From positions 70,024-134,023 of the forward strand of contig CAYFZD010000001.1 in the NCBI GenBank assembly GCA_964347565.1: 64,000 bases of DNA. Direction: 5' to 3'. Below the pieces are notes generated by a model, which was given only the letters and a program-made list of their open reading frames with translations, was not told the DNA's origin and did not search any database. Every line of letters starts with the position of its first letter. Positions within the stretch are counted from its first letter, which is position 1. The DNA comes from an uncultured Pseudomonadales bacterium. Lineage in GTDB: Bacteria > Patescibacteriota > Microgenomatia > UBA1400 > UBA12108. Both the position numbers and the translations under genes were made by a program. This document shows positions 1 to 57,358 of the stretch, in pieces.

Positions 1-223
1 TGACTCGGTTATTACTCTGGAGTTTAGCTACGTACTCGTTAATTTTCTCGGCGAGGTATCCTGTCACTACCGTGATTTCTGTAATGCGAGAAAATCGAAG
101 GGAAATATCGACTTGGTTAGCCAGGAGAGTAGTGCCTCCAACGCTGATGAGAACCTTGGGGAGGTCTAGGGTAATGGGGAACAACCGAGTCCCCATCCCA
201 GCCGCCAAAATAATATGCCTCAT
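1..223 (-). CDS. sugar-1-phosphate nucleotidyltransferase (RmlA/NTP_transferase-like), N-terminal part; CDS runs off the window start
   Basis: Reverse-strand ATG at 223-221. My translation reads MRHIILAAGMGTRLFPITLDLPKVLISVGGTTLLANQVDISL..., carrying the GxGTRL nucleotidyltransferase signature. There is no stop before position 1. It is absent from the ORF track because the window edge truncates it. Confidence 0.8.
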   Translation of the reverse strand, partial: MRHIILAAGMGTRLFPITLDLPKVLISVGGTTLLANQVDISLRFSRITEITVVTGYLAEKINEYVAKLQSNNRV

Positions 224-231
224 GTGAGTAA

Positions 232-669
232 GTGTACAATATATGCATGGAAGACGGGAAAGAAGTGATCGAGAAAAACGGCCAGATTTTTGCCCTCGTG
301 ATCCGTCGCTCGTACCGCCCAGGAGGGGTCAATTTCCTGACCCCCGACGACTACACTCTCCAGCTAGGTTTGATCGGCCACCCTACAGGCATCCATGTCC
401 GTGACCATATCCATAATCCTCATATTCACTATAAAGTCGATACTACCCAAGAATTCCTCTATGTCGAAAAAGGCAAAATCAAAGCCACCATCTACGACTA
501 CGGCTGGAATGTGATCAAAGAAGTGGTCTTAGAGTCAGGAGATATCCTCTTGCAGGTCTCGGGCGGACACGGTTTTGACGTCCTCGAGCCCAGCTACCTC
601 ATCGAGGTGAAGCAAGGCCCCTTCCCCGGCGATAAACTCATGAAATTTTATAAAGACGATCCACAATGA
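232..669 (+). CDS. cupin-fold protein, putative sugar-nucleotide ketoisomerase/epimerase (WxcM/FdtA-like placement)
   Basis: 145-aa ORF with a His-rich cupin-like motif (HVRDHIHNPHIH...E...G). It is translationally coupled (ATGA at 666-669) to a DegT aminotransferase and divergent from a nucleotidyltransferase. The start may be GTG 232 or ATG 247. Confidence 0.5.
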   Translation: MYNICMEDGKEVIEKNGQIFALVIRRSYRPGGVNFLTPDDYTLQLGLIGHPTGIHVRDHIHNPHIHYKVDTTQEFLYVEKGKIKATIYDYGWNVIKEVVLESGDILLQVSGGHGFDVLEPSYLIEVKQGPFPGDKLMKFYKDDPQ

Positions 670-1775: not shown

Positions 1776-2433
1776 ATTTGCTCGCTCCCCCGAGCCTCGC
1801 CTGATAGGTAGTGGGGACCTCGAGCATTTTCCACCCTGCTCCAGCTGCGTAAAAAACGAGTCGCAGGTGATAGTCTCCGTAGCCGTAATAAATCCGCTTG
1901 ATTCCGAGTTTCTCAATATCAGCTTTCCTGACGGCGTAATATCCACTCGTGTTATCCCAAATAGGTAGCCCAAACAGGCGAAACATGGCGTTAAAGAGGA
2001 ATGTCGGCGCCATCCTCCATCCCTTCATCCCTCCATTCCCCTTGAACCTAGAGGCCACCACAAGTTTCACCTCACCAGTGAGGTGTTGCAGCATATTAGG
2101 CATATCACTGGGGTCGTGGTTCCCATCCGCGTCCATCCCAATAATTATGTTGCCTTTGGCATGTAAGATCCCGTCCCCGATCGAGAGTCCCAGGCCGTGA
2201 TCTTTCTTCCTCACGATAACTCTGATATTCTGGTTCCTAGTTCCTAATTCCTGTACTACCCGCGCCGTCCCGTCAGGGGAGTCATCATCTACGACCAACA
2301 CTTCGTGTTTATATCCTGCCTTAGATAGTACTTGTGAAACATGTTCCGCGTGAGGGCCTATCGCCTCGGCTTCGTTGTACGTAGGCAAAATGACCGATAC
2401 AAAATCCATAAAAATAATCCTATTCCTGCCCAT
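1702..2433 (-). CDS. family-2 glycosyltransferase, dolichol-phosphate-mannose-synthase-like
   Basis: VSVILPTYNEAEAI...LVVDDDSPDGT...GMDADGNHD are GT2 DxD-type motifs. The probable start is the internal ATG at 2409. It overlaps the upstream minus-strand gene by 52 nt or more. Confidence 0.8.
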   Translation of the reverse strand: MGRNRIIFMDFVSVILPTYNEAEAIGPHAEHVSQVLSKAGYKHEVLVVDDDSPDGTARVVQELGTRNQNIRVIVRKKDHGLGLSIGDGILHAKGNIIIGMDADGNHDPSDMPNMLQHLTGEVKLVVASRFKGNGGMKGWRMAPTFLFNAMFRLFGLPIWDNTSGYYAVRKADIEKLGIKRIYYGYGDYHLRLVFYAAGAGWKMLEVPTTYQARLGGASKSKLLQMAIEYTREAYRLRFGSARS

Positions 2434-3950
2434 GTTAGCATGATCCCTAACCTCTGCACAGGGGGGGCTTCAAACTTAATTTCTAACTGTGATTCTCCCT
2501 TTGGTACGATGCAGATAATGAGGCCCGAATCATCGATATGGGAGAGAGTCTTCGTACTCACACTGCAATTAGCAGGTATTATCCAGCCAGGAAAGAAAGC
2601 TGTATTGATCCTCACAGTTCCCCCCTCTTCGCTCACAACTCGAATCAGTTTGTAATTTGACCTATCGTTCAAAAGTTCTACAACTCCGCTCCCCTGCACA
2701 AATTCGGCCCTCTTTCCAAACGGCGCCGAGTCTCGCGTTGCCCTCGTAAGTGGGGCATACTCCCCGTAGCTATCACCCGTCTCGCTCGCAAACCAGGACA
2801 GCGGCTTATCCCAATATTTATCCGTATGCGCCATCGGCACCGCCAGCAAAATTAGAATTGACGTCACTCCTATCATCACCGATTTCTGTATTGGTTTGTT
2901 GGTAAGTTGATTCACTATCTCCGCCCCCATCCAAGCCGTGCCAAACACGATACACATCAGCAGTCTCCAAGGAAAATCGATCATATTCCCCAGGCCCCAT
3001 CGGTATATCGGGAGCGAGATCGGCAGGATAAAAAATAATGACAGCATTACACTAGCTGATAAATAGCTCAGGAGTGTATTCCCCCTCCTAATTGCCATCA
3101 CTAAGCCCCACAAAATGACCCCCCAACCAATTATGCCTATCTCAAAGGACATGCCATCCCCATTTCCCGGTAGTGATACCCCGTATCCCCAGGGGGAATG
3201 AATCAGCTGGGAAAGGCTAGGGAACATGAGGAGGGTATCAGAGAGCGTCGGTGAGTAGTAAGTATATTTTGTGAGTGCGAGTGTCGGGAGTAAATTAAAT
3301 GCGGCAATGAGTAGGGCGATCGCATAAGCTCCCCAGCGGAATTTTTGCTTCATGACCAGGGAGTAGCCTAAAAAGAATATCGAAAACGCGGCCGAAGCAA
3401 CTGGGTGGGTCAAAAATAAACCTACCCATCCCAGCACAAGTAGTGGTGTAGATGATTTGCTATATCCCCAAATCAAGAGGGGGGCAAAGACAAATGAGAG
3501 TGACTCACCAAGCGCCCCTCGCACAAAGATATCGACGAAGCGGTATGGCGCCAAGCTATAGAGGAGCGCACCCACCCACGCGCCTGCCCAACCAATTTTT
3601 GATCTTAGCGCCAGATACATCAGGGCTCCCGCTACGACAAACGAGAGACCGAGCGTGAGTTTGTAACTATCAAAATAGGAGAGGCCTAGTCTGTGCCACA
3701 GCTCTCCTAGGGCGTAGGGGAGTTGGTAGTTGAGCATGAGCACCGGGGAGCCGATCCCTCCCAGCACCTCTCTCGCCCACATAGGAGGGAACTGACCATC
3801 CTCTATCGCGCTATGATAGGCGATGGCGCGAGAGACGTGAGGATTAGAGTCATGGAACATGGGCAGACCAGGGATCAGCATATCCCTCATTAACCAAGTG
3901 AGGAGGAATACCAGGACTGAGATCAGTGACCATTCCCGCAGTCGTTGCAT
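2358..3950 (-). CDS. large polytopic membrane protein with C-terminal extracytoplasmic domain, putative GT-C-like glycan polymerase/transferase
   Basis: About 530 aa with more than 10 predicted TM helices, followed by a roughly 150-aa soluble region and a final TM. It sits in the glycan cluster. I did not recognise a family; the start was chosen at MQRLREW (3950) to avoid overlapping the divergent gene. Confidence 0.45.
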   Translation of the reverse strand: MQRLREWSLISVLVFLLTWLMRDMLIPGLPMFHDSNPHVSRAIAYHSAIEDGQFPPMWAREVLGGIGSPVLMLNYQLPYALGELWHRLGLSYFDSYKLTLGLSFVVAGALMYLALRSKIGWAGAWVGALLYSLAPYRFVDIFVRGALGESLSFVFAPLLIWGYSKSSTPLLVLGWVGLFLTHPVASAAFSIFFLGYSLVMKQKFRWGAYAIALLIAAFNLLPTLALTKYTYYSPTLSDTLLMFPSLSQLIHSPWGYGVSLPGNGDGMSFEIGIIGWGVILWGLVMAIRRGNTLLSYLSASVMLSLFFILPISLPIYRWGLGNMIDFPWRLLMCIVFGTAWMGAEIVNQLTNKPIQKSVMIGVTSILILLAVPMAHTDKYWDKPLSWFASETGDSYGEYAPLTRATRDSAPFGKRAEFVQGSGVVELLNDRSNYKLIRVVSEEGGTVRINTAFFPGWIIPANCSVSTKTLSHIDDSGLIICIVPKGESQLEIKFEAPPVQRLGIMLTWAGIGLFLWILYRSFCLRTTKPRR

Positions 3951-3972
3951 ATATCCATAGTATACTTTACCC

Positions 3973-5262
3973 ATGTGGGCGATATTGGTTCTGGCATTTC
4001 TGTTGCGACTCCCTTTCCTCAACCAATCCCTCTGGCTCGACGAGAGTCTCGAGGCCCTCGCCCTCCAAGGACATTTTGGTTCACTCCTCTCCTACTCACT
4101 CTCCGATTTCCAGCCACCGCTCTACCATTTTATTCTCCGGGCTTGGACATCACTCGCTGGATATTCCGAGCTCTCCCTCCGCCTGCCCTCGCTCCTAGCG
4201 GGGTTACTCACAGTTTATTTTGTGTTCAAACTAGGGGAACTCCTTGGCTCGCGCAAAGTAGGGTTCATCGCGGGCCTCCTCGCCGCTACCAATCCGCTCC
4301 TCATCTACTACTCACAAGAGGGGCGTACCTACATGATGACCACTCTATTCGTCACAATGAGTTTTTACTTCCTCCTCAAAAAATCCTCGCTTGCCTACCT
4401 ATTCTCTACGCTCCTGGCCATCTGGAGCTCATATCTCGCCTGTTTGATCGTGCCACTCCAGCTGATCTATCTCGTGCGCCAAAAAAGATTTCGTCTTGCC
4501 ATAGCTCTCACCCTCGTCGCTTCCTCTCTTCTTCTTTGGGCTCCCTCATTTCTGCGCTCGCTCTCGATTGGTTTAGGTGACGCCGCTAGCGTTCCTGGAT
4601 GGGGGAGGGTAGTGGGGGGCATTTCGGTCAAAGCTCTTGCTCTCACTTGGGTCAAAACTGTCATCGGACGTATCTCATTTAGTCCATCATGGCTCTATGG
4701 CTCTGTCGTACTCACGCTTATTCTTCTCCACGGGCATATCGCAAGACATGCGAAAAAAATACACCCTCTGCTCTTGATCTGGCTGGCCACACTCGCCCTC
4801 GCTGGCCTGATCTCGCTCTTCGTACCTGCCTATAGCTATACTCGCCTCCTCTTTGTGGTGCCGGCGTACCTCCTGATCCTCGCCCTCGGGCTCGCTCGTC
4901 TCCACCACAGCTTCACTGCCCTTATAATTGTCTCGCAACTCATTTTTCTCTCCATTTTTTGGTTTAGCCCGCGCTTCCACCGCGAAGATTGGCGCAGTCT
5001 GGTCAGTTATCTCAATACGCAGTCAGGAATAGTCGTCCTCCCCAGCCTCAAGCAAGACGCACCTCTTCTATATTATCAATTGACTCTTCCCCTGCTGGCT
5101 TCGACGGATCCTCTGAGCTCAAGTACTGTTTTTTATATCAAGTACGTCGAGGATGCCTTTGACCCAGAGGGGCGAGGGAGAGCGAATCTGACCAATCTCG
5201 GATATACTCTTACTACACAACGTGTTTACACGGGAATTCAGATGGATGTATATGAGAAGTAA
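3973..5262 (+). CDS. GT-C fold membrane glycosyltransferase (PMT_2 / ArnT-like, family GT39/83-like)
   Basis: Polytopic protein. The N-terminal loop carries the LWLDESL acidic motif, and the overall architecture matches ArnT/PMT_2 proteins. Confidence 0.65.
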   Translation: MWAILVLAFLLRLPFLNQSLWLDESLEALALQGHFGSLLSYSLSDFQPPLYHFILRAWTSLAGYSELSLRLPSLLAGLLTVYFVFKLGELLGSRKVGFIAGLLAATNPLLIYYSQEGRTYMMTTLFVTMSFYFLLKKSSLAYLFSTLLAIWSSYLACLIVPLQLIYLVRQKRFRLAIALTLVASSLLLWAPSFLRSLSIGLGDAASVPGWGRVVGGISVKALALTWVKTVIGRISFSPSWLYGSVVLTLILLHGHIARHAKKIHPLLLIWLATLALAGLISLFVPAYSYTRLLFVVPAYLLILALGLARLHHSFTALIIVSQLIFLSIFWFSPRFHREDWRSLVSYLNTQSGIVVLPSLKQDAPLLYYQLTLPLLASTDPLSSSTVFYIKYVEDAFDPEGRGRANLTNLGYTLTTQRVYTGIQMDVYEK

Positions 5263-5301
5263 GATATCCTGTGCCCTTCCGAAGCCTTGGCGGAGGAGGG
5301 T

Positions 5302-6372
5302 ATGAAAATAGCCATTGATGTCTCACAAATGTGTTACGAGGGGAGTGGGGTCGCTCGCTACGTACGAGGACTCACTCAGGCTTTACTCAGCGAGAACTCT
5401 CCCCACAGGTTCATTCTCTATGCCGGTGCACTCCGTCAAAAGTCATTCTTTACTGATCTTGCTCACACCCATCCTTGGAATCGAGCTATCTGGAAGATCC
5501 TCCCGATCCCACCCAAGCTCGCGAGTCTAGCTCTTCACTCGCTCCCCATTCCTTTTGAAATATTCACCGGCTCCGCCGATCTCCTGCACACCTCCGATTG
5601 GGTCGAACCCACGAGTAATTTGCCCATGGTCACGACTGTCCATGACCTTGTGTTCCACCAGTATCCAGAGACTGTTGACCCGCTCATCCTGAGGACTCAA
5701 ACCCAGCGCCTCGCCCGACTTGCCAAAAACTCCACCCATATTATCGCCGATTCATTGAGTACCAAAAATGATCTCATGGAAATATATCGATTCTCGAGTG
5801 AGCGAATCACCATCGTATATCCAGGTATAGAACCTACTTATCAGCCTCAATCGAAATCAGAAATTGATCGAGTGAAAAGAAAGTATGATTTACCTGATAA
5901 ATTCATCTTCTCTCTCGGTACTCAGGAGCCGCGCAAAAATTTAACTCGCCTTACAGAGGCGGTCGCTGGCCTCGACTTACCCTTAGTTCTTGCTGGTAAA
6001 CACGGTTGGGGGGATAAAACTAAGACTCTCGGCTTCGTCCCCGAAGCTGATCTGCCAGCTCTCTATAGCGGCGCCACTGTTTTTGCCTACCCCTCCCTCT
6101 ACGAGGGATTTGGTTTCCCTGTACTAGAAGCGATGGCTTGTGGTACCCCTGTAGTAACCTCCAATATTTCCTCACTAACAGAGGTAGCTGGCGAGGCCGC
6201 CGTCCTCGTAGATCCCTTGGATGTTGACTCTATTCGCTCTGGAATCAAACAGGCGCTCGCTTCCCACGATAAACTTATCAAATTGGGGATCATTCAAGCC
6301 AAAAAATTCTCGTGGGATAATACGGCTAAACAAGTCTTGGAGGTCTATGAAAAGATTGCAAATAGGCATTGA
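5302..6372 (+). CDS. family-4 (GT-B) glycosyltransferase
   Basis: The C-terminal EGFGFPVLEAMACGTPVV motif is typical of GT4 retaining glycosyltransferases. Start taken at MKIAID. Confidence 0.85.
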   Translation: MKIAIDVSQMCYEGSGVARYVRGLTQALLSENSPHRFILYAGALRQKSFFTDLAHTHPWNRAIWKILPIPPKLASLALHSLPIPFEIFTGSADLLHTSDWVEPTSNLPMVTTVHDLVFHQYPETVDPLILRTQTQRLARLAKNSTHIIADSLSTKNDLMEIYRFSSERITIVYPGIEPTYQPQSKSEIDRVKRKYDLPDKFIFSLGTQEPRKNLTRLTEAVAGLDLPLVLAGKHGWGDKTKTLGFVPEADLPALYSGATVFAYPSLYEGFGFPVLEAMACGTPVVTSNISSLTEVAGEAAVLVDPLDVDSIRSGIKQALASHDKLIKLGIIQAKKFSWDNTAKQVLEVYEKIANRH

Positions 6373-7453
6373 CGCCAACGAAGCCAATGTCAAAAACCGG
6401 GTCGGCACTGGCCAATACTGCTACCATCTGCTCAAACACTGGCAGAAGGAATCAGACATAGATTTTCACCTCTATCACCGCGATCCACTTCAGCGGGACA
6501 TGCCAGAAGGTAGTAAAAACTGGCACTATCACCAGGTCGGTCCCTCTCGTGCTTGGATCCGCGTTGGATTGCCCCTCCACCTCATTACCCACCCCAGGAA
6601 CGACGTCTTTTGGTCGCCCGCGCACTACGCCCCGTGGTATCCAGGTGGTCAAAGTGTGGTCACGATCCACGACCTAGCCTACGAATACTTCCCCAACCTC
6701 TTCCTGCCAAGTGATTTATACAAACTCAAAAACTGGACCAGATCGGCCGTCAAACAAGCAACTCGCGTGATCGCAGTCTCAGAAGCCACCAAGCGTGATC
6801 TCGTCAAACTCTACGAAGTCAAAGAAGAGCAAATTAGCGTCGTCCACAACGGCTACGACTCCGATATTTTTAACGTCAGCCCTAAAATTAATCCAGCCTT
6901 ACTTGTAAATTGGAATTTGAAAACTGAAAATTACATCTTGTTCCTCGGCACCATCCAGCCCCGCAAAAATGCCATCAAACTGGTCCAGGCATTTCATTTG
7001 CTAAAGGAATCAGGCTATCCCGGTAAGCTCGTGATCGCCGGCAACATCGGCTGGCTCGCCGACGACACGCTCGCCCTCATCAAAAACTCCCCCGAAGCCA
7101 AGGATATTGTCCTCACTGGCTATGTGAGCGACGAGGTTCGCAAAACCCTCTATACCTATGCCGATGTTTATGTCTTACCCTCTCTCTACGAGGGTTTTGG
7201 GGTCCCAGCCCTTGAGGCCATGGCGTGCGGGGCACCGGTCGCCGTCGCGGACAATTCCTCTCCTCCCGAGGTCGTGGGGGAGTCCGGACTCTACTTCAAC
7301 GCCAATGACCCAGCAGGCATTGCCCGCGCCATCAGTGATCTCCGCCAGGAGCGTGCTCAGTGGAGCCAAAAGTCCCTCGCCCGCGCCCAGCACTTCTCCT
7401 GGTCCAAATGCGCCAAAGAAACACTAAAAGTATTGTCCGAGGTGGCTAAATGA
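6347..7453 (+). CDS. family-4 (GT-B) glycosyltransferase
   Basis: EGFGVPALEAMACGAPVAV motif. The ATG at 6347 (MKRLQIGIDANE) overlaps the upstream GT4 stop by 26 nt in another frame. Confidence 0.85.
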   Translation: MKRLQIGIDANEANVKNRVGTGQYCYHLLKHWQKESDIDFHLYHRDPLQRDMPEGSKNWHYHQVGPSRAWIRVGLPLHLITHPRNDVFWSPAHYAPWYPGGQSVVTIHDLAYEYFPNLFLPSDLYKLKNWTRSAVKQATRVIAVSEATKRDLVKLYEVKEEQISVVHNGYDSDIFNVSPKINPALLVNWNLKTENYILFLGTIQPRKNAIKLVQAFHLLKESGYPGKLVIAGNIGWLADDTLALIKNSPEAKDIVLTGYVSDEVRKTLYTYADVYVLPSLYEGFGVPALEAMACGAPVAVADNSSPPEVVGESGLYFNANDPAGIARAISDLRQERAQWSQKSLARAQHFSWSKCAKETLKVLSEVAK

Positions 7454-7508
7454 TCATTTATGCTTTCTGAAATTTGACATCACGCTCTACTAATGTGAAC
7501 ATAGCGTT

Positions 7509-7928
7509 ATGGAAACGAATGCTGAGATGAGTTATAGCAAAAAACCCCTCTGGCAATTGATCTTGATTTACCTGATCGTAGGTGGACTAGTTTATGCTGG
7601 CATCTACAAGTATTATTACCCCGACAAAAATGCTCCAACTAAACCAACGCAGATGATCGAGGGTTCAAAAGTTACCCTCACTGAGTCTGGATATTCGCCC
7701 GCAACTCTCACGATCAAAGTCGGCGACACCGTCACCTGGACCAACACTGGTTCCAAAAACTCCAACGTGAGCTCTGATCCCCACCCACAGCACACGACCT
7801 ACTCACCACTCAATTTGGGCATGTTGAAGCCTGGTGACTCTCTTTCTCTCAAGTTTGACACTGCTGGTACATATACTTACCACAATCACCTCAACGAATC
7901 ACAGCGCGGTACGATCATAGTCAAATAG
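7509..7928 (+). CDS. membrane-anchored cupredoxin-like (amicyanin/plastocyanin-fold) protein lacking the Cys copper ligand
   Basis: N-terminal TM helix. The C-terminal domain (VGDTVTWTNTG...AGTYTYHNHLNESQRGTIIV) aligns in my reading with the amicyanin GDTVTW / GTYDYHCTPH...M blocks, but Asn replaces the Cys and Ser replaces the first His. Confidence 0.5.
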   Translation: METNAEMSYSKKPLWQLILIYLIVGGLVYAGIYKYYYPDKNAPTKPTQMIEGSKVTLTESGYSPATLTIKVGDTVTWTNTGSKNSNVSSDPHPQHTTYSPLNLGMLKPGDSLSLKFDTAGTYTYHNHLNESQRGTIIVK

Positions 7929-7952
7929 TCTCACACCTTGTACAATGTGACT

Positions 7953-8558
7953 ATGGATTTCCCACTCTCTGACAAACATGGTGGTCGTCTCACCTGGCAA
8001 CAGGGGATGGCGAAGATCTACACCAGGCTAGAGAGCTACCTCCTTGATTTTGGCCTCCTGCTCCTCCATTTGACCACCTGGATCCCCCTCCACTCGGTTA
8101 GAAATTTTTTTTGGCGTCTATCTGGTCTAAATCTGGGGAAACACTCTACCCTCCACACGGGAATCCGTGTCTTTGATCCTAGGAGGATCAGGGTAGGGGA
8201 GGGGACCATCATCGGCTTCGCCTGCTTTATTGATGGGCGTGACCAGGTCAGGATCGGGAATCACACCGATATTGCCTCAGAAGTCATGATCTTTAGCCAG
8301 GAGCACGATCTCTCCTCCCCCAATTTCCAGGCAATAGGTGCGCCGGTCCATATTGGCGACTATGTCTTTATCGGACCTCGCGCCATCATCTTGCCAGGTG
8401 TGAGCATCGGTGACGGGGCGGTTGTGGCGGCCGGGGCAGTTGTGACCAAAAATGTTGAAGCAGGTTCTATCGTGGGTGGAGTCCCCGCCAAAGTGATTGG
8501 CGAGCGCTCTCTCAAAACCCCCCATTATAAGTTGGGAAGATTTAAATTATTCCAATGA
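7953..8558 (+). CDS. hexapeptide-repeat (left-handed beta-helix) sugar O-acetyltransferase, WcaF/Mac-like
   Basis: Hexapeptide repeats ([31 protein letters not shown]) and a WcaF-like N-terminal segment. The ORF track starts it at TTG 7938; the first ATG is 7953. Confidence 0.8.
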
Positions 8559-12517: not shown

Positions 12518-13698
12518 AAGTATTGATGCTCACGCCCTACTTACCCTTCCCTCTCGTCTCGGGTGGACAGATCCGCACCTATAATCTACTTAAGCATTTA
12601 TCCAAACATCACGATATCACCCTTTTCTCGCTCATTAAGGATGAGTCGGAGCGTTCTTATCTCTCAGAGCTCCAAACATACTGCAAAAAAATCGTTCTCT
12701 TTAAACGGACAAAAAATCCTTTTGTTCTACGCAATATCCTGCTCGCCGGCTTCTCCCCCTACCCGTTTGTGGTCACGCGCAATCTCCCCCTCGGGATGAA
12801 AAAAGCCGTCCAAGCTGAATTGGGGCAAGAAAAATATGACCTCATCCATGCCGAAACTTTTTACATGATGCCCAATATACCCCCCACTCGTGTACCAATC
12901 ATTTTAGCTGAACAAACTATAGAATATCTGGGTTACCAAGATTACATGAAAAAAGCCAATTTGTTTCTACGACCGATCTTGAAAATTGATATCGCCAAGA
13001 TCAAATACTGGGAACGATATTTTTGGAATAAAGCCGACAAACTGATTACTATGTCTGAAGAGGATAAAAATTTTATCGAAAAAGAGCTCGGGAGGCCCCA
13101 AAACATCAGCGTCGTCGCCAACGGCGTAGACCTAGAATTTTTCTCTAAAGTCAAAAAAAATCTCCCCTTGAACCCTACCGTATTATTTGTGGGGACATTT
13201 AAATGGCTCCCAAACATCGAGGCAGTCGACGAGATCGTGACAAAAATATGGCCTCTCGTACAACAAAAATTACCCCAAGCTAGGCTCAAAATTGTCGGCT
13301 TTTCCCCTACGGACAAAATCCAGGGTTACGCTCAGGATCCCACGATCGAGGTCTTGGGCGGGATCGACGATATTCGCCGAGCCTTTGCTACTTCCCATAT
13401 GCTCCTCGCTCCAATCCGCAGCGGGAAGGGGACTCGCTATAAAGTCCTCGAAGCCATGATCACTGGTACTCCTGTGGTGGCGACTACTCTGGCCGCCGAG
13501 GGTCTTGATCTAAAAAACGGTCGTAACGTACTAATCTCCGATACTTCTGGAGAGCTGGCTGAGGCGACTGTCAGACTCCTCAAAAACGTAGATTTACAAA
13601 AGAAACTAGGTACGGCAGGGCAAAAAATTGTGCGAGCCGGCTACAGTTGGGATACAATTGCAGAGGAACTGGACAAAGTCTACAAGGAATTCCTATGA
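12514..13698 (+). CDS. family-4 glycosyltransferase
   Basis: GT-B architecture with the C-terminal block RSGKGTRYKVLEAMITGTPVVAT. ATGA overlap with the upstream gene. Confidence 0.85.
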   Translation: MKVLMLTPYLPFPLVSGGQIRTYNLLKHLSKHHDITLFSLIKDESERSYLSELQTYCKKIVLFKRTKNPFVLRNILLAGFSPYPFVVTRNLPLGMKKAVQAELGQEKYDLIHAETFYMMPNIPPTRVPIILAEQTIEYLGYQDYMKKANLFLRPILKIDIAKIKYWERYFWNKADKLITMSEEDKNFIEKELGRPQNISVVANGVDLEFFSKVKKNLPLNPTVLFVGTFKWLPNIEAVDEIVTKIWPLVQQKLPQARLKIVGFSPTDKIQGYAQDPTIEVLGGIDDIRRAFATSHMLLAPIRSGKGTRYKVLEAMITGTPVVATTLAAEGLDLKNGRNVLISDTSGELAEATVRLLKNVDLQKKLGTAGQKIVRAGYSWDTIAEELDKVYKEFL

Positions 13699-14594
13699 CC
13701 AAACCGGATGTTTCCATCATCATCTTGAACTATAACGCCGAAAAATTCTTGCGTGAAACTCTCAAATCAGTCGCGATGCAAAAAGGTTTAGCAATCGAGA
13801 CCATCGTGGTGGACAACAACTCTAGTGACAACTCCAAAGCGATGGTGGGTAAAGAATTCCCAGGTGTGAAGTGGGTACAGCGCGATACTTCCCTCGGCTT
13901 CTCGGCCGGCAACAATGCGGGACTCCCCGCAGCTCACGCCGACACCATTCTGTTTCTGAATCCTGACGCGAGTTTCACCAAATCCTCCGATCTCAAAACT
14001 TGCTATGACAAACTTTGGAGCGATGACACAATTGGTACCCTGACTCCCCGCATCAATTTGGTTTTGACCGGCGGGATTGACGAGACTTGTCACCGCGGGT
14101 TCCCCACCCCGTTCTCGGCACTCACCCATTTTACTGGTCTCTCCAAGTTATTCCCTGATACTCCTATCTTTAATCACTACACCAAGCGGTATTTAGGTTA
14201 TACCAAAGAGCACGAGATCGACTCTGTGGGCGGTATGTTTATGCTCATGCGCCGCTCTGTAGGGGAGGAGGTTGGGTGGTGGGATGAGGATTACCCCCTC
14301 TACGGCGAAGACATCGACTTTTGTTACCGCTTGCACGAGGCAGGCTATCGCAACCTCTATTACCCCGCCGTGACGGTCTTGCACTACAAGGGAGTCTCTA
14401 CCGGTATGTCCAAGCAAAGCGCAACCATCTCGACCGCCAAAAAAGAGACCACGAGACGCGTCAAAGGCTGGTCCATCCAGGCCATGGAGATCTTTTATCG
14501 CAAACACTATGTCCAGAAATATCCCTTCTTCATCACCTGGCTCGTGTTCCTCGGGATTAAATTACTCAAGTTCCGCCGCGTCACCCTGGCGTAA
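13695..14594 (+). CDS. family-2 glycosyltransferase
   Basis: VSIIILNYNAEKFL...VVDNNSSD...LNPDA motifs. Start at MTKPDV (ATGA overlap with the upstream stop). Confidence 0.85.
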   Translation: MTKPDVSIIILNYNAEKFLRETLKSVAMQKGLAIETIVVDNNSSDNSKAMVGKEFPGVKWVQRDTSLGFSAGNNAGLPAAHADTILFLNPDASFTKSSDLKTCYDKLWSDDTIGTLTPRINLVLTGGIDETCHRGFPTPFSALTHFTGLSKLFPDTPIFNHYTKRYLGYTKEHEIDSVGGMFMLMRRSVGEEVGWWDEDYPLYGEDIDFCYRLHEAGYRNLYYPAVTVLHYKGVSTGMSKQSATISTAKKETTRRVKGWSIQAMEIFYRKHYVQKYPFFITWLVFLGIKLLKFRRVTLA

Positions 14595-14615
14595 ACTTTC
14601 CGCTATAATCACCTC

Positions 14616-15695
14616 ATGATCAAGATCGCCATCGACGCCAGGTTTTACGGTAGCGGCCACACGGGGCTCGGCAGATACACCACCAATGTGCTCAAGTATC
14701 TCCCCAACCACCTACAAGGTTACACCTTGCAGGTGCTGCTGAGGGACGCGGAGTACGACAACTTTCCCTCTGGTAAAAACATCGAGAAAATCCATGCGGA
14801 GATCCCCCATTATTCCCTCGCCGAACAGCTCAAATTACCTAGATTACTCAAGTCTATTGGTGCCGACCTCCTCTACACATTTCACTTCAACACACCCGTC
14901 TTGTCAGATATTCCCACGATTGTCACCGTCCATGACCTGATCAAATCTCACTTTACTGGTAGAGATACCACCACGCGATCACCCTGGCTCTACGCTCTCA
15001 AGCGAGCCGGTTACAATCGCGTACTCGCCAAAACTCTGATACATGCATCAGACATCATCGTCCCCACCAACACTGTTAAAAATGATATTTTAGGTAAATT
15101 TTTCACTCTCAAGCCAGAATCGATCCATCCTATCCCCGAAGCGCCAGATGAAATCTTCCGCCAAAATTTGAAACTTGAGAATTTGAGATTTGAGATTCCC
15201 AACAAATACATCTTATTTGTTGGTAATGTTTATCCCCACAAAAATCTCCCTGTCCTACTCGAAGCCATGAAATCACTCCCTGAGTATGACCTCGTGATCG
15301 TCGCCAAACCCTCACCCTTCCTCTCCCGTGTCCTCGCTCCCTACGAGAGAGCCCGCATCCACATCCTGTCTGACCTTAGAGACCCAGAACTTGTCGGTGT
15401 TTATCGCCGCGCCACAGCCCTCGTGACCCCCTCACTCATGGAGGGATATGGCCTCGTCGGGCTCGAGGCTCTCATGGTAGGCACTCCCGTCATTGCCAGC
15501 AATATCCCAGTCTATCGTGAGGTCTATGGTAAGAATGTTACCTATTTTGACCCTCATTCTGTTTCCGACCTTGTCCGTGCCATTCGATCTTTGGCCATTG
15601 GTCATCGACCATCGACCATGAAATTGGATCGTACTTGGGACAACGTAGCTAGAGACATTGCGGAGGTCATCCATGCGTGTTGCGCTAGTTTATGA
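14616..15695 (+). CDS. family-4 glycosyltransferase
   Basis: IKIAIDARFY...GTGLGRY N-terminal and MEGYGLVGLEALMVGTPVIAS C-terminal GT4 motifs. Confidence 0.85.
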   Translation: MIKIAIDARFYGSGHTGLGRYTTNVLKYLPNHLQGYTLQVLLRDAEYDNFPSGKNIEKIHAEIPHYSLAEQLKLPRLLKSIGADLLYTFHFNTPVLSDIPTIVTVHDLIKSHFTGRDTTTRSPWLYALKRAGYNRVLAKTLIHASDIIVPTNTVKNDILGKFFTLKPESIHPIPEAPDEIFRQNLKLENLRFEIPNKYILFVGNVYPHKNLPVLLEAMKSLPEYDLVIVAKPSPFLSRVLAPYERARIHILSDLRDPELVGVYRRATALVTPSLMEGYGLVGLEALMVGTPVIASNIPVYREVYGKNVTYFDPHSVSDLVRAIRSLAIGHRPSTMKLDRTWDNVARDIAEVIHACCASL

Positions 15696-16722
15696 CCGCC
15701 TCAATAAGGTAGGAGGGGCCGAGCGAGTCTTGCAAGCTTTTCACGAGCTTTCCCCCCAAGCTGATTGGTACACCAGTTTTTGGGACCCCTCTCACGCTCC
15801 CTTCTCCAAAGATTGGCGCGTCCGCTCATTTCCCTACCTGCGGAATCATCACGAATGGTTCCCCTGGCTTATGCCCTTTATCTTTGAGTCATATGATTTC
15901 TCTAGTTACGACCTAGTGATCTCTATCGGTAGCGCGGAAGCGAAGGGGATCATTACGCGACCTGGTACTACTCATCTCCACTATTGTCTGACTCCTACCC
16001 GCTATCTCTACTCGCATGCACAAGAGTATCTCTCAAACTGGCTTTATCGCCTTATCGCTCTCTGGCTCAGGAAATGGGATCAAGTCGCTTCCTCTCGGCC
16101 AGATCAAATGATTGCAATTAGTACTCAAGTGAAAAATCGTATAAAAAAATACTACAGTAGAGATTCAGAAGTCATTTTCCCACCCGTCGATACCCAAAGA
16201 TTCAATTTGCCGTTTAAGAAGGGGGAGTACTTTCTGATCGTCTCTCGACTTGTCCCCTATAAGAAGATTGATGTCATTATCCAAGCATTTAACCAGCTCC
16301 CTAACCAACAACTAGTCGTCATCGGTACAGGCAGTGAAGAATCTCGTCTCAAGCGACTTGCCCAAGGTGAGAATATCCAATTCCTCGGTTTTGTTCCCGA
16401 GGAGAATCTGCCCGCTTACTTTCAACATGCTCACGCTTATCTGCAAGCTAATACCGAAGACTTTGGGATTAGCATGGTCGAAGCTCAGGCAGCTGGACTT
16501 CCCGTAATTGCATATCAGCAAGGGGGAGCCAGCGACATTGTCATCCCCAATGTGACGGGCATCCTCCTCAAACACAATGATGTACAATCCATTATAACTG
16601 CGGTTGACAATTTCGATCAAAAGTCCTTTGATAGGGAGGCGTGCAGAAAGAATGCCGCTCGATTTGACCTCCAAAGCTGGCATCTACAGTTTCGCAACTA
16701 TTTAAAGCCTTATGGATACTAA
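15673..16722 (+). CDS. family-4 glycosyltransferase
   Basis: MRVALVYDRLNKVGGAERV N-terminus and a C-terminal EDFGISMVEAQAAGLPVIA block. Confidence 0.8.
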   Translation: MRVALVYDRLNKVGGAERVLQAFHELSPQADWYTSFWDPSHAPFSKDWRVRSFPYLRNHHEWFPWLMPFIFESYDFSSYDLVISIGSAEAKGIITRPGTTHLHYCLTPTRYLYSHAQEYLSNWLYRLIALWLRKWDQVASSRPDQMIAISTQVKNRIKKYYSRDSEVIFPPVDTQRFNLPFKKGEYFLIVSRLVPYKKIDVIIQAFNQLPNQQLVVIGTGSEESRLKRLAQGENIQFLGFVPEENLPAYFQHAHAYLQANTEDFGISMVEAQAAGLPVIAYQQGGASDIVIPNVTGILLKHNDVQSIITAVDNFDQKSFDREACRKNAARFDLQSWHLQFRNYLKPYGY

Positions 16723-17821
16723 ACCAAATTCACATTTGTACGTTGTCATTCTCTGTGGTGGCGGTGGCACTAGGCTCTGGCCACTTTCCCGCAACTCTAC
16801 CCCCAAACAGTTTATCGAGCTAATTGGTGAAGAAACCTTGTTCGAAAAAACTCTCACACGTGCCCAGTCACTCGTTGACCCAGACCACCTCTATATCATA
16901 ACCAACGAACAATACTTGCCCGACGTCCAAAAATACACGCACAACCTGCCAGCCGATCATCTGATTGCCGAACCCCTCAAAAAGAATACTGGCATGGCCA
17001 TGGGAGTAATCGCTGGGATTATTCACACGCGCGACCCGCAAGCGACGATTATTAATTTGGCTTCTGACCATCTTGTTGGCAACTTGGCGGAATTTCAACA
17101 AACAGTCCTTGCTGCAGCTGCCACCGCCACCGCCACCTCTGCGATTGTGGCCATCGGGATCAAGCCAACCTTTGCCCATCCTGGCCTAGGATATATTCAC
17201 CGAGGGGAAAAGATCCAACACACCTTGGATTACCCAGTTTATAAAGTCGCCGGCTTCCGCGAAAAACCCAGTATCGAAGTGGCCACTAACTATCTCGCGA
17301 CCGGAGAATATTACTGGAATGCCAACCTCTACACCTGGACCTCCCAGTCCATCCTAGAAGAATTCAAAACGCATTCTCCTGAGATTTACTCCCATGTAGT
17401 AAAGATCATGGCCGTCGTAGACAAGCCCAATTTCACCAACGTCATGCGAGAAGAATACGAGGATAGTCCCGATGAACAGATCGATATTGCGATTTCCGAA
17501 AAGACTACTCGCTTAGCCGTGATTCCTGGGGACTTTGGCTGGACCGACATTGGATCTTGGAACGTCGTGCACGACGAAGCCGAAAAGGATCAGGACGGGA
17601 ATGCGTTGGTTGAGCGAGAGGAAGGGGCGGAATGGATCCACCTTGACACTTCTAACTCACTCGTTTCGGCTGGGCGCAAACTCATAGTTACCATCGGCGT
17701 GGACAATCTCATGATCGTTGATACTCCAGATGCACTTCTGATTACTACTAAGCAAAAGGCCCAAGATACCAAAAAAATTGTCGAACTACTTCGCCAAGAA
17801 AATCGCGATACATTGATATGA
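16712..17821 (+). CDS. manC: mannose-1-phosphate guanylyltransferase (GDP-mannose pyrophosphorylase)
   Basis: LYVVILCGGGGTRLWPLSRNSTPKQF N-terminal signature, then GYIHRGEK...FREKP and WNANLYTW blocks typical of ManC. Confidence 0.85.
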   Translation: MDTKPNSHLYVVILCGGGGTRLWPLSRNSTPKQFIELIGEETLFEKTLTRAQSLVDPDHLYIITNEQYLPDVQKYTHNLPADHLIAEPLKKNTGMAMGVIAGIIHTRDPQATIINLASDHLVGNLAEFQQTVLAAAATATATSAIVAIGIKPTFAHPGLGYIHRGEKIQHTLDYPVYKVAGFREKPSIEVATNYLATGEYYWNANLYTWTSQSILEEFKTHSPEIYSHVVKIMAVVDKPNFTNVMREEYEDSPDEQIDIAISEKTTRLAVIPGDFGWTDIGSWNVVHDEAEKDQDGNALVEREEGAEWIHLDTSNSLVSAGRKLIVTIGVDNLMIVDTPDALLITTKQKAQDTKKIVELLRQENRDTLI

Positions 17822-18450
17822 GCTATTCTTATGACTTTACCAAGCGTGCTCTCGATATTGTCGTCGCTTCGGTTCTTTCTTTAGTTTTTCTACCTGTCTG
17901 GTTAATTGTCCCTCTCCTCATTGTTCTGAGCTCTCCTGGCCCCATCGTCTATCGACATCGCCGCATCGGTCAAGGGGGTAAGAGTTTTGATATGTACAAA
18001 TTCCGCTCGATGGTCATGGACGCCGATCATATCCTCCATCATCAGGACAAAAAACTCCTCAAAAAATTCAAGTCATTAGACTGGAAACTAGAGGCCAAAG
18101 ACGATCCTCGCATTACTCCCCTGGGGAGGATCTTGCGCTCACTTACTATAGATGAATTCCCCCAGCTTTATAACGTCCTCAAAGGTGAAATGAGTATGGT
18201 CGGGCCTCGCGCTTATCTCAATCGTGAGTTATCCGAGCAAGTCAAAAAATATCCAGGTACCAAAAAACTAATGGATATTGTCTTGACGGCCAAACCTGGT
18301 CTAACTGGGCTATGGCAGGTTTCCGGTCGTAACGAAATCTCATTTGACAAACGGGTCGCACTTGACGCACAATATGCCAAAGTACGTTCTCTTTGGAACG
18401 ATCTCAAAATATTATGGAAAACTCCTCAAGCGATGATCTCCAAGTGGTGA
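17818..18450 (+). CDS. polyprenyl-phosphate glycosyl-1-phosphate transferase (small bacterial sugar transferase, PglC/WbaP C-terminal-domain type)
   Basis: KRALDIVVASVLSLVFLPVW...GPIVYRHRRIGQGGKSFDMYKFRSM...DEFPQLYNVLKGEMSMVGPR is a classic Bac_transf signature. Confidence 0.9.
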   Translation: MSYSYDFTKRALDIVVASVLSLVFLPVWLIVPLLIVLSSPGPIVYRHRRIGQGGKSFDMYKFRSMVMDADHILHHQDKKLLKKFKSLDWKLEAKDDPRITPLGRILRSLTIDEFPQLYNVLKGEMSMVGPRAYLNRELSEQVKKYPGTKKLMDIVLTAKPGLTGLWQVSGRNEISFDKRVALDAQYAKVRSLWNDLKILWKTPQAMISKW

Positions 18451-20378
18451 GCGAACCTGTCCTGAGTGAGGTCGAAGGAGTCGAACCAGAAATGGTAACT
18501 CTGGAAACACCCAAAAAATCTTGGTACAAGAAGCCCTGGCTTCTAGTTCTAATTTCTTTACTCGGATTTCTGATTTTTATCCTCATCTGGCTAGGGATTG
18601 CCGCCAAATCTACATATAGCAAGGTCACAGAAGCCACCTCGCACGCTAGCGCCATGATGAGCGCTTTTGAGGCACGTGATCTCGCTACGGCAAAATCTGA
18701 GCTAGAGAGTACCAAGCTCGCCCTTGAAAGCACCAAAAAATCCTGGAACACGACTGCCCCACTACGCCTCGTACCGCTTTTGGGTCTATATCTCAAAGAT
18801 GTCGAGCACGTTTTCCAAGCCGCCGACAAAGGTACTCAGATAGGGGATATGGTGATAGCGGCCATCGAACCCTACGCCGACATCATGGGGTTCACAGGCA
18901 CTTCTGGAGGAGAACTCCAGTTAGCCACAGCCGAGGACCGCATCATTTTTGTCGCAGAGACTGTGGAAAAACTCGCTCCGCAAATGGATCAAATCAGCGC
19001 CAAACTAAAAGAGATGAGTAGTGAATTCGAAGCGATCAACGAAAAACGCTACCCCAAGTCGCTCATGGGCAAATCAGTCAGAGAAAAGATCACTACTCTC
19101 AAATCAACCGTGGCTGGGGCTGCGGAGTCGCTTGGCCAATTCCAGCCGATCGTCAAACTTCTGCCCGATCTCCTAGGTAATCCTGACTCCAAAAAATACC
19201 TGATCATGTTCCAAAACGACGCCGAGCTCCGTCCCACCGGCGGATTCCTCACTGCCTATGCAACCATGAAAATCACCAAAGGCAAGATCGAGTCGGGTGT
19301 CTCTCAAGATATCTATACACTCGACGCCGGGTTCAAACGCAAAGTTCCGGCTCCTGATCCCATCAAAAAATATTTACCCCTAGTCTACAACTGGAACCTG
19401 CGCGACATGAATCTTTCCCCAGATTTTAAGAGCTCCATGGACACTTTCACTGGGTATATGAGTGAAGTTCCGGGGAGGCCCGACTTTGACGCTTTGATCG
19501 CAATCGATACCGAGGTCCCCGTGCGCATCCTCAAGGTTTTGGGTCCCATTGGGGTACCTGGATATGGGGGTAAATTCTCGGCCGAAATAGATCCTCGCTG
19601 TAACTGCCCTCAAGTTATTTATGAACTAGAAAACATTATCACTCGCCCCACCTACGAGATCCGCGAAGGGCGCAAGTCGATCCTGGGACCTCTCATGAAC
19701 TCCATGCTCGCCAATATGATGGGTAGCCCCAAGGCCAAATGGGCCGAATTTTTCAATATTTTTACAGAGAGTATTAAAGAGAAGCACCTCCTCATGTACT
19801 TCCGCGACGAAAGCAAGCAGAACGCCGTCGAGGTCTTGGGTGCGGCCGGTCGCATCAATGACTACGTGGGCGACTATCTCCACGTGAATGACACCAACTT
19901 TGCCGGTGCCAAGTCCAACATGTTTGTGACCCAAGAAGTCGAGCAAGTTGTCACAGTGAACACAGATGGCTCCCTGACCAAAAAATTGACCCTCACCTAC
20001 AAGAATCCCAGGGCGGGAGACAACTGCAATCTCGAGGCTGGTTTGCTATGTCTCAATGGCTTGTTGCGGGACTGGCAGCGGATTTATGTTCCTAAAGGTT
20101 CGGTCCTCAAGAGTGCCAAGGGGTATGAGCTCGACATGATCACGACCGAAGATCTGGGCAAAACTGTGTTTGAAGGATTCTTCACGCTTTCTCCCCAATC
20201 CGTCAAGAAACTCGAGGTAGAGTACACTGTCCCAGCTGGCACAGTGAGTGGAGACTACAAACTCCTGATCCAAAAACAGCCCGGCACCAAAGAGATCAAG
20301 ACTACAATTACCGTAGGATCAGCCAAACCCAAAGTCTACAACCTCAACTCCGACCAAGAGATTATTCTCCCTAGATAA
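18414..20378 (+). CDS. DUF4012-like membrane-anchored extracytoplasmic protein
   Basis: N-terminal TM helix then a large domain carrying the DAELRPTGGFLTAYATMKITKGK block I associate with DUF4012. It is coupled to the initiating transferase. The start could be ATG 18414 or 18492; the track begins at TTG 18393. Confidence 0.55.
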   Translation: MENSSSDDLQVVSEPVLSEVEGVEPEMVTLETPKKSWYKKPWLLVLISLLGFLIFILIWLGIAAKSTYSKVTEATSHASAMMSAFEARDLATAKSELESTKLALESTKKSWNTTAPLRLVPLLGLYLKDVEHVFQAADKGTQIGDMVIAAIEPYADIMGFTGTSGGELQLATAEDRIIFVAETVEKLAPQMDQISAKLKEMSSEFEAINEKRYPKSLMGKSVREKITTLKSTVAGAAESLGQFQPIVKLLPDLLGNPDSKKYLIMFQNDAELRPTGGFLTAYATMKITKGKIESGVSQDIYTLDAGFKRKVPAPDPIKKYLPLVYNWNLRDMNLSPDFKSSMDTFTGYMSEVPGRPDFDALIAIDTEVPVRILKVLGPIGVPGYGGKFSAEIDPRCNCPQVIYELENIITRPTYEIREGRKSILGPLMNSMLANMMGSPKAKWAEFFNIFTESIKEKHLLMYFRDESKQNAVEVLGAAGRINDYVGDYLHVNDTNFAGAKSNMFVTQEVEQVVTVNTDGSLTKKLTLTYKNPRAGDNCNLEAGLLCLNGLLRDWQRIYVPKGSVLKSAKGYELDMITTEDLGKTVFEGFFTLSPQSVKKLEVEYTVPAGTVSGDYKLLIQKQPGTKEIKTTITVGSAKPKVYNLNSDQEIILPR

Positions 20379-54087: not shown

Positions 54088-54088
54088 G

Positions 54089-54499
54089 ATGAAGTGGGGA
54101 CTTGCCCTGAGCTTGCCGAAGGGTTTCACTCTCGTGGAGCTCATGGTCACGATTGGGATCTTTGCGGTCCTAGCCACTCTCTCCTCGATCAATTTTTTCT
54201 CGACTTATTCCCAGTCCAATTTGGGTGCCACGCAAGATGTCTTGATAGCTGATTTAAAAACTGCCCAATCTAACGCCATGTCAGGCTCCTCGGACGTCAC
54301 CTGGAGCATTACAACGATGACTCCGCTCTCGCCAGGCCTGACTTTGACTACTGAGTATCCTAGTAATCAAGTCACTTTTCTGCGTGGATCGGGTGAAATC
54401 TCTGGCTACAACAGTGATTACGACACCATTACCATCAGTTCAAGTATCGAAAGCAAAACGCTAGAACTCAATAAATATGGCACCATCACGGGAAATTAA
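54089..54499 (+). CDS. type IV pilin-like (pseudopilin) protein
   Basis: Class III signal MKWGLALSLPKG|FTLVELMVTIGIFAVLA, i.e. the prepilin peptidase site and N-methylation motif. Start taken at MKWGL. Confidence 0.8.
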   Translation: MKWGLALSLPKGFTLVELMVTIGIFAVLATLSSINFFSTYSQSNLGATQDVLIADLKTAQSNAMSGSSDVTWSITTMTPLSPGLTLTTEYPSNQVTFLRGSGEISGYNSDYDTITISSSIESKTLELNKYGTITGN

Positions 54500-57357: not shown

Positions 57358-57358
57358 T

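Follow-up and report, generated by a model that had tools for sequence, protein, structure and literature searches.

We analyzed a stretch of 64,000 nucleotides (nt) from contig CAYFZD010000001.1 (assembly GCA_964347565.1), referred to below as the window, which opens with a cluster of glycan assembly genes at positions 1-20378. This cluster comprises 20 genes, including a polytopic enzyme with a Wzy_C domain, cytoplasmic and membrane-bound glycosyltransferases (GTs) and a protein of the DUF4012 family, and its larger part recurs in the same order in related bacteria of the Microgenomates group. Families were assigned by Pfam and NCBIfam profile searches of each protein, and these agree with the original prediction, made from the DNA letters, in its calls of three GT2 and five GT4 enzymes, a DegT aminotransferase, a WcaF-like acetyltransferase, ManC, a Wzy_C protein, two PMT_2 enzymes and an initiating transferase of the PglC/WbaP type. 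The gene number given there (about 20, contiguous and co-directional) is also right, but the first nucleotidyltransferase fragment, the GT2 enzyme named GT2a below and a GT-C protein of 554 amino acids (aa) lie on the minus strand.

The conserved core begins with PMT2a, a GT-C enzyme of the PMT_2 family (3973-5262; PF13231, E 4.6e-11). From here to position 20378 all genes lie on the plus strand and successive reading frames touch or share 4-40 nt, which gives the region the look of a single operon; a scan for promoters and terminators returned counts no higher than in shuffled sequence. PMT2a is followed by two cytoplasmic core enzymes whose position is conserved in relatives, GT4a (5287-6372; PF00534 and PF13439) and GT4b (6353-7453; PF00534, E 2.4e-29; the open reading frame (ORF) was listed from 6221, but a start close to 6353 is more likely), then by a core hexapeptide-repeat acetyltransferase resembling WcaF (7938-8558; PF00132; NF007797 at E 1.8e-27, below that model's cutoff) and the cytoplasmic GT-A enzyme GT2b (8555-9466; PF00535, E 2.7e-23), also part of the core, which overlaps each of its neighbours by 4 nt. 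The Wzy_C enzyme with its WaaL-type fold (9463-11121; PF04932, E 1.6e-10) comes next and shares 17 nt with the gene of PMT2b, the second GT-C of the PMT_2 family (11105-12517; PF13231, E 3e-13). Four further core glycosyltransferases follow, namely GT4c (12514-13698; PF13692; TIGR03087-like, E 3e-65), GT2c (13647-14594, with a likely start near 13695; PF00535, E 3e-20), GT4d (14616-15695; PF00534, E 4e-22) and GT4e (15658-16722; PF00534, E 5e-37).

The operon closes with three genes of different function. The first encodes a ManC-type mannose-1-phosphate guanylyltransferase without an isomerase domain (16712-17821; PF00483 and PF22640; TIGR01479 at E 2e-90 over model positions 2-351 of 467), which would supply GDP-mannose. 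The second encodes a small monotopic phosphoglycosyl transferase of the Bac_transf family with 210 aa (17818-18450; PF02397, E 6e-61; TIGR03025, E 9e-75); it combines the architecture of PglC with a WbaP-like catalytic domain in which the D112-E113 dyad is conserved, and judging from its family it would start synthesis on a polyprenyl-phosphate carrier. The third is the DUF4012 protein of 661 aa (18393-20378; PF13196, E 5e-19), which, like a cupredoxin-like gene, is an additional member of the cluster and had not been named before. The cupredoxin-fold protein is membrane-anchored (7509-7928, +; PF13473 (Cupredoxin_1), E 8e-9) and resembles amicyanin and plastocyanin; since it has no cysteine at all, it is unable to form a type-1 copper site. 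Its gene interrupts the operon and was seen in only one (L011) of 80 related loci, so that it is a lineage-specific insertion, probably outside the pathway.

Conservation of the core and the variable left module

To collect related loci, we searched a single genome for each species with aligned Wzy_C orthologues, which found 137 relatives; 80 loci were fetched, and presence counts rest on the 37 of them that have full flanks. The core is collinear in the fetched loci, in the order PMT2a-GT4-GT4-acetyltransferase-GT2-Wzy_C-PMT2b-GT4-GT2-GT4-GT4-ManC-initiating transferase-DUF4012-RecO, at protein identities of 30-85%, and this order is kept in genomes of Woesebacteria, Gottesmanbacteria and Curtissbacteria. 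Each of the 37 full-flank loci contains PMT2a, the acetyltransferase, Wzy_C, GT4c, GT2c and GT4d. The operon proteins have median identities of 33-58% (ManC 30%), compared with 32% for the neighbouring housekeeping protein RecO, and GT4c, with a median of 49% across loci, is among the best conserved. For the Wzy_C, GT-C and DUF4012 proteins, too, the homologues belong to the Microgenomates group (among them Woesebacteria, Gottesmanbacteria, Curtissbacteria, Collierbacteria and Roizmanbacteria).

The original prediction had termed the cluster an island. We rejected a horizontally acquired genomic island because the GC content stays at 0.47-0.52 throughout the window with no deviation at the cluster, and because the core proved collinear in dozens of related genomes, including the 37 full-flank loci from several candidate classes. 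Gene order and base composition instead point to a vertically inherited core operon that is ancient and not mobile. In relatives the operon is followed by RecO and GlyRS, and in the window it is likewise followed by recO and glyS and then by a complete dcw cluster (cell division and cell wall) at 24.6-43 kb. One relative has the operon on a contig of 897 kb, and the operon would occupy about 2% of a genome of that size. An operon of 15-17 kb that takes up about 2% of genomes of roughly 0.9 Mb and is fixed in order across class-level lineages suggests that its glycan product matters to the cell, perhaps for the integrity of the envelope or for contact with a host.

Some relatives carry additional, lineage-specific genes in the operon (L002:5320-5898, L045:3546-4676, L025:8231-9133, L066:5704-7101), among them a phosphoribosyltransferase-domain protein beside PMT2a, a GT-C of the PIG-V type, an EamA transporter with ten transmembrane (TM) helices, and extra GT2/PMT_2 pairs. 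In the wider window, GC skew is negative throughout, though nearly all genes lie on the plus strand, and the dcw cluster holds an extra NTP_transferase (28901-29668, +) and a CofD/YvcK-like protein (29556-30650, +) amid its Mur ligase genes.

The left 4 kb, in contrast to the core, are variable. They begin with the N-terminal 74 aa of a nucleotidyltransferase of the sugar or phospho-alcohol type (1-223, -), whose gene is truncated by the left edge of the window and whose product starts MRHIILAAGMGTRL. The best match in the PDB by phmmer was LicC (E 1.7e-8), and generic sugar-1-phosphate nucleotidyltransferases were matched as well; of the earlier RmlA-like assignment the NTP-transferase superfamily therefore stands, whereas the closer identity is not borne out by a 74-aa fragment with LicC as its best solved match. 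The next gene encodes a small cupin-like protein of 140-145 aa (232-669, +), for which we found no Pfam match, FdtA included, even at E<=5, and no PDB sequence match; the WbuC family TIGR04366 was reached below threshold (E 1.6e-6; 28 bits, cutoff 42), and the former description of this protein as isomerase- or epimerase-like gained no support from these searches. The DegT-family sugar aminotransferase (666-1775, +; PF01041, E 3.8e-117) has its best PDB matches in the GDP-perosamine synthases of Caulobacter (3bn1, 3dr4; E 2e-90, 306 bits), as against 210 bits for the C3-aminotransferase QdtB. Two divergent genes complete the module, GT2a (1702-2433, -; PF00535, E 1e-27), a GT-A enzyme similar to DPM1, AglJ and PpgS and a candidate polyprenyl-phosphate sugar synthase, and the third GT-C-type polytopic protein (2358-4022, -), which is YfhO/PTPS_related-like according to the Pfam families of its homologues and probably starts internally, at a length of about 510-540 aa. 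An independent public assembly, Logan contig ERR3094302 (L001, 3998 nt), covers these left 4 kb with five proteins that are 100% identical, and reaches just 20 nt further left than the window.

The cupin occurs only in the nearest relatives (L004, L006) and DegT is also confined to the closest ones, while the divergent pair of GT2a and GT-C is spread a little more widely and occurs both with DegT and without it. This limited distribution of cupin and DegT, and less strictly of the GT2a/GT-C pair, marks the left 4 kb as an accessory module, probably one for decoration that adds a 4-amino-6-deoxy sugar. A 3-amino-3,6-dideoxyhexose had been proposed on account of the cupin, the aminotransferase and the acetyltransferase. 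We discarded it, and with it a 3-acetamido-3,6-dideoxyhexose pathway of the FdtA/FdtB/FdtC type, as the cupin lacks a match to FdtA, DegT is nearer to perosamine synthases than to QdtB, and the trio does not form one unit, the acetyltransferase belonging to the core and the cupin and DegT to the accessory part. A 4-amino-4,6-dideoxyhexose is the better guess because of the perosamine-like DegT, the presence of ManC and a gene of the GDP-mannose-dehydratase/epimerase type that stands beside the nucleotidyltransferase in the relative L002.

The Wzy_C enzyme, its GT-C partners and the route of assembly

The Wzy_C protein matches PF04932 at 41.4 bits (gathering score 31.7) and its orthologues do so at 32-61 bits; in public databases the latter are annotated as 'O-antigen polymerase' or 'O-antigen ligase'. 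With an AlphaFold2 model (predicted TM-score (pTM) 0.78) the top Foldseek fold in the PDB was WaaL (7tpg_B; E 1.3e-3, TM-score 0.58 normalised to the target), which was the sole match with a probability of 1.0 and was followed by SEDS proteins, whereas PDB sequence and profile searches gave nothing useful and did not reach WaaL. An accessory PglL_A or TPR domain was not found in the protein by Pfam. The family is small: when 1.84 billion cluster representatives were searched exhaustively, 811 matched at E<=1e-3, and the stricter limit of E<=1e-30 left 244. Its members carry a conserved Pro-rich extracytoplasmic loop. The window also encodes two SEDS proteins of the FtsW/RodA family (37470-38549 and 46765-47835, +), whose fold is distantly related to that of the Wzy_C protein.

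In ligases and O-oligosaccharyltransferases such as WaaL and PglL, the His of a motif in the last periplasmic loop is catalytic, and it is essential in PglL. The segment LTQTR215AT of Escherichia coli WaaL aligns with LTASR239TS of the Wzy_C protein in hmmsearch, and R239 is invariant in the orthologue alignment. The WaaL stretch H337-N-E-I-I-E-A-G-S-L-K-G-L-M-G lines up with D458-N-D-Y-L-R-M-L-G-E-T-G-L-L-G at equal spacing to the G-x-x-G, so that D458 is equated with H337 by motif spacing and not by superposition of structures. All 120 close homologues and 118 of the 150 best representatives of the family have an Asp here, and none shows a His; the other 32 representatives comprise one with Ala and 31 that were not matched by the search pattern. 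The alignments thus suggest that the catalytic His of WaaL and PglL has been replaced in this family by an invariant Asp, D458.

A second peculiarity is the link between the Wzy_C enzyme and PMT2b. In about 27 related loci, mainly of the Gottesmanbacteria type, the two form one ORF of 990-1067 aa (about 1,040 aa), with Wzy_C as N-terminal and PMT_2 as C-terminal half in all five fused proteins tested by Pfam, two of which also pass the PMT model PF02366. Examples of the fusion are loci L024, L046, L050, L036 and L070, around positions 10001-13150, besides about 22 others. Since both occur as one polypeptide in many relatives, the Wzy_C enzyme and the PMT_2 GT-C are likely to act together. Among the best 150 representatives of the Wzy_C family, 57 are 969-1271 aa long and have the Wzy_C module first, and the extension at their C-terminus starts with a module resembling PMT_2 (97.6% probability in hhalign, E 5e-12). 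That all these extensions are orthologues of PMT2b did not hold up, as a direct hidden Markov model match was obtained for 2 of the 57 and the extensions diverge beyond their PMT_2-like start. One long representative, P0378, has a terminal region with the residues VPGNEDQE that by eye is reminiscent of a metallophosphoesterase motif. A literature search, sparse in subscription journals, brought up no description of the operon or of the Wzy_C+PMT_2 architecture. Together, the fusion and the exchange of His for Asp mark a distinct branch of the WaaL/Wzy/PglL superfamily, which could work in another way than the ligases characterised so far.

The GT-C enzymes themselves show conserved acidic residues where the first loop faces outward. 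PMT2a has a conserved W21-L22-D23-E24 with D23-E24 in the first outer loop, and PMT2b a conserved D28 and R33-Q34-x-D36-T37 with D28 and D36 in that loop, each at 90% or more. In the 554-aa protein, H57-D58, H62 and R65 of the first outer loop are conserved to at least 90%. This protein has no Pfam hit of its own, but all of its 246 homologues come from Microgenomates-type sources and many of them carry YfhO (PF09586), PTPS_related (PF10131) or PMT_2 (PF13231); hhalign related its profile weakly to PMT2a (E 5e-4) and PMT2b (E 2e-4) over 147-239 columns. These family matches, direct and by way of homologues, identify it as a probable GT-C, as had been tentatively proposed. PDB sequence and profile searches with the 554-aa protein and with PMT2b gave nothing useful. 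In every lineage with GT2a, its gene adjoins and overlaps that of the 554-aa GT-C, whether DegT is present or not; the nearest NCBIfam models of GT2a are AglJ, PgfS, ArnC and PpgS, all below cutoff.

Profile searches and phmmer located no Wzx flippase gene within positions 1-20378, whereas 13 relatives have Wzx-type genes (PF01943, PF13440) within the orthologous cluster or at its border. A candidate Wzx-type flippase is encoded at 60337-61563 (+); its only Pfam match is MatE at E 1e-3, but hhalign against the relatives' Wzx proteins gave a probability of 94.8% (E 5e-8, 371 columns). It may serve the operon from a distance of 40 kb. The gene is part of a second small glycan locus (60337-63137, +) made up of this Wzx-like flippase of the MOP family, an NTP_transferase (61568-62254) and a GT2 (62118-63137). 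No homologue of a small flippase of the GtrA or ArnE-F type was found in the window by phmmer; in the relatives L002 and L004, small 4-TM genes of the EamA type stand beside the GT-A/GT-C genes.

The DUF4012 protein ranks, by sequence identity, among the best conserved operon members, with 57-84% identity among its 120 best homologues and many invariant Arg, Asp, Asn and Lys residues. Behind a single N-terminal TM helix, its extracytoplasmic part consists of a long helical bundle, a domain of the alpha/beta type and a beta-sandwich. Foldseek searches with its AlphaFold2 model (pLDDT 76) returned marginal matches to LytR-CpsA-Psr (LCP) proteins, namely Cps2A (3tep, 3tel) and Lin1025 (3owq), at E ~1e-2 and TM-scores of 0.29-0.44, interspersed with matches to the M1-aminopeptidase family. 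The protein could be a ligase or a co-factor. DUF4012 is one of the envelope families enriched in bacteria of the candidate phyla radiation (CPR) (PMC6744442).

From these assignments a pathway can be proposed. The small phosphoglycosyl transferase would place a sugar-1-phosphate on undecaprenyl phosphate, presumably its substrate, and the five GT4 and two GT2 enzymes of the core would extend the glycan in the cytoplasm, with donors that would include GDP-mannose from ManC, while the WcaF-like enzyme might acetylate it. A Wzx flippase, for which the protein at 60.3 kb is the candidate here, would export the lipid-linked oligosaccharide. Outside the membrane the WaaL-fold Wzy_C enzyme might then polymerise the glycan or transfer it en bloc, physically together with the adjacent PMT_2 GT-C, and PMT2b and PMT2a could add single sugars from polyprenyl-monophosphate donors provided by the DPM1-like GT2. 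The membrane-anchored DUF4012 protein would complete the extracytoplasmic step, possibly by attaching the product to the wall. An en-bloc plus stepwise extracytoplasmic route had been predicted before, and it gains from the initiating transferase, the seven cytoplasmic GTs, the Wzy_C enzyme and the GT-Cs found here; the Wzy_C-PMT_2 fusion strengthens the coupling of its two parts.

Candidate products and related systems

We favour, with moderate confidence, the view that the cluster represents the core operon of Microgenomates for a cell-surface glycan and that its product is a lineage-wide, wall-associated heteropolysaccharide resembling a secondary cell wall polymer. Several points speak against it. 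Given the Asp in place of His, the chemistry of the Wzy_C enzyme may differ from that of every characterised member. With a single enzyme of the Wzy_C type, the role of a polymerase and that of a ligase or transferase are not both assignable. The cluster of the window contains no flippase, and the candidate at 60.3 kb has a nucleotidyltransferase and a GT2 of its own as neighbours. Pfam searches recovered neither Wzz nor GNVR nor LytR_cpsA_psr, and so no Wzz, no chain-length regulator of the CpsCD type and no clear LCP protein was seen in the cluster; the likeness of DUF4012 to LCP proteins is marginal and no sequence method supports it. The highly conserved gene content also fits a general protein glycosylation system, and to our knowledge no envelope chemistry has been described for any of the Microgenomates.

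Indeed a general system of protein O-glycosylation is a real, if lesser, possibility. The Wzy_C protein would then be an O-oligosaccharyltransferase of the PglL/PilO/WsfB type that transfers the glycan en bloc onto Ser or Thr of pilins, S-layer or secreted proteins, and the PMT-like GT-Cs would O-mannosylate proteins or lengthen the protein-bound glycan. The combination of ManC with a DPM1-like GT2 fits the Ppm1/Pmt logic of protein O-mannosylation in actinobacteria, some PMT2b orthologues pass the protein O-mannosyltransferase model PF02366, and general glycosylation loci are likewise conserved in gene content. A single Wzy_C enzyme and the lack of a chain-length regulator would suit such a system too, and the Wzy_C domain is common to PilO, PglL and the S-layer transferases WsaB and WsfB of Gram-positive bacteria, in which en-bloc protein O-glycosylation is known (PMC2943079). 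On the other hand, the essential His of PglL is Asp in all orthologues checked, PglL_A and TPR accessory domains were not found, and sequence methods do not separate O-oligosaccharyltransferases from ligases and polymerases. The genome does encode type IV pili, and the pilus locus that had been pointed out as a likely source of substrates is present in the window (51.3-58.5 kb); it is not adjacent, however, but begins 31 kb off, past the dcw cluster, and the pilin genes, 34 kb away, are unlinked to the operon in relatives, where RecO and GlyRS stand instead. The locus contains three pilin-type N-termini (54044-54499, 56461-56982 and 58032-58481) and two proteins without a family match, of 654 aa (54500-56464, +) and 231 aa (57314-58009, +).

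A more radical idea, in our estimate unlikely, is that the Wzy_C-PMT_2 pair represents a previously undescribed two-step machine. The GT-C would prime an acceptor, either Ser or Thr of a protein or a wall polymer, with a single sugar donated by polyprenyl phosphate, and the WaaL-fold half with its Asp for His would ligate the oligosaccharide linked to undecaprenyl diphosphate (undecaprenyl-PP) en bloc onto this primer. The DUF4012 protein would act as a new LCP-like or scaffolding partner, and the product would be a surface glycan that defines the Microgenomates lineage, possibly an S-layer or pilus glycan mediating attachment to a host.

Still less probable, in our view, is a membrane-anchored lipoglycan similar to the lipomannan and lipoarabinomannan of actinobacteria, which the GT4 enzymes would build on a lipid anchor and the GT-Cs extend outside from polyprenyl-phosphate-mannose. 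ManC, five GT4 enzymes, a DPM1-like GT2 and two to three GT-Cs of the PMT_2/YfhO type would be in keeping with it, as would the sub-threshold NCBIfam matches of the GT4s to models of the MSMEG_0565, MshA and glycolipid-synthase types and the PIG-V-type and further PMT_2 GT-Cs of relatives. But the conserved Bac_transf and Wzy_C proteins and the linked Wzx speak for a repeat unit or oligosaccharide on undecaprenyl diphosphate and not for a phosphatidylinositol or glycolipid anchor.

As a rule, loci for O-antigens and capsules are hypervariable from strain to strain. An ordinary, horizontally acquired O-antigen, capsule or lipopolysaccharide (LPS) island of the Wzx/Wzy/WaaL type, as the annotations 'O-antigen polymerase/ligase' and the O-antigen-like gene classes might suggest, can hardly be at hand, given a cluster that lacks Wzz, does not deviate in base composition and is collinear beside recO-glyS across class-level lineages, in a CPR host of a kind described as Gram-positive-like, without outer membrane or PilQ (PMC6744442). 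That description of the host makes the LPS O-antigen reading in particular very unlikely, and the earlier view that this is not a standard O-antigen locus is upheld.

Among known systems, the wall-associated heteropolysaccharide that we favour finds its closest likeness in the wall polysaccharide of Bacillus anthracis with GtsABC and in the rhamnan and pellicle of Lactococcus lactis with WpsA-J and CsdAB (PMC8035078, PMC9574508). In Gram-positive bacteria, decoration of wall polysaccharides by multi-component systems of GT-A, flippase and GT-C is established, such polysaccharides can be made by a Wzx/Wzy route, and in L. lactis a polymerase is followed by a GT-C transferase (PMC8035078, PMC9574508). 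The argument that the number of GT-Cs in the cluster exceeds what a polysaccharide locus needs loses its force for this reason. What the operon shares with such systems is a Gram-positive-like host with a single membrane, assembly on a lipid carrier by several cytoplasmic GTs, probable export by Wzx, a polytopic polymerase-type enzyme followed by a GT-C, and GT-A/GT-C pairs, with small 4-TM flippases in some relatives, that would add side sugars outside the membrane. It departs from those of B. anthracis and L. lactis in that initiation is by Bac_transf and not by WpsA/B, and in that the polymerase-like enzyme has the Wzy_C/WaaL fold, carries Asp for His and is joined to a PMT_2 GT-C by fusion or translational coupling. 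Furthermore, a Wzz-like WpsH and a recognisable LCP protein are missing, DUF4012 being present instead, and the gene order is fixed across class-level lineages and not variable between strains.

The left module recalls the systems of CsbB/GtcA/YfhO and of ArnB, ArnC, ArnE-F and ArnT in its DegT, its GT2 of the polyprenyl-phosphate-sugar-synthase type and the adjacent YfhO/PTPS-related GT-C (PMC5836110, PMC8035078), and relatives add a 4-TM gene of the EamA type at the same place. It differs from both in that the window has no small flippase gene, GT2a lacks C-terminal membrane helices, and the probable sugar, in place of GlcNAc or Ara4N, is a 4-amino-6-deoxyhexose linked to GDP or NDP.

The Wzy_C enzyme shares with WaaL of E. 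coli (7tpg) the Pfam Wzy_C domain, the fold and an Arg (R215, here R239). Unlike WaaL, to which it is about 13% identical, it is 130 residues longer, has a Pro-rich loop insertion and has D458 for H337, and the lipid A-core that WaaL uses as acceptor is expected to be absent from the host. With PglL/PilO and WsaB/WsfB, the latter two also acting in Gram-positive bacteria, it has in common that a Wzy_C enzyme meets an undecaprenyl-PP glycan begun by a transferase of the PglC/WbaP type (PMC2943079). It differs from these in lacking the conserved His and a TPR or PglL_A module and in having no substrate gene beside it. We know of no counterpart to the GT-C fusion in the PglL/PilO or WsaB/WsfB systems.

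The CPR, or Patescibacteria, make up a large share of bacterial diversity. The operon represents a defined and portable gene set that could be expressed in a heterologous host in order to identify the glycan. It is set apart from every characterised system by the deep conservation of its gene order, the coupling or fusion of Wzy_C and GT-C, the exchange of His for Asp and DUF4012 as an obligatory partner.

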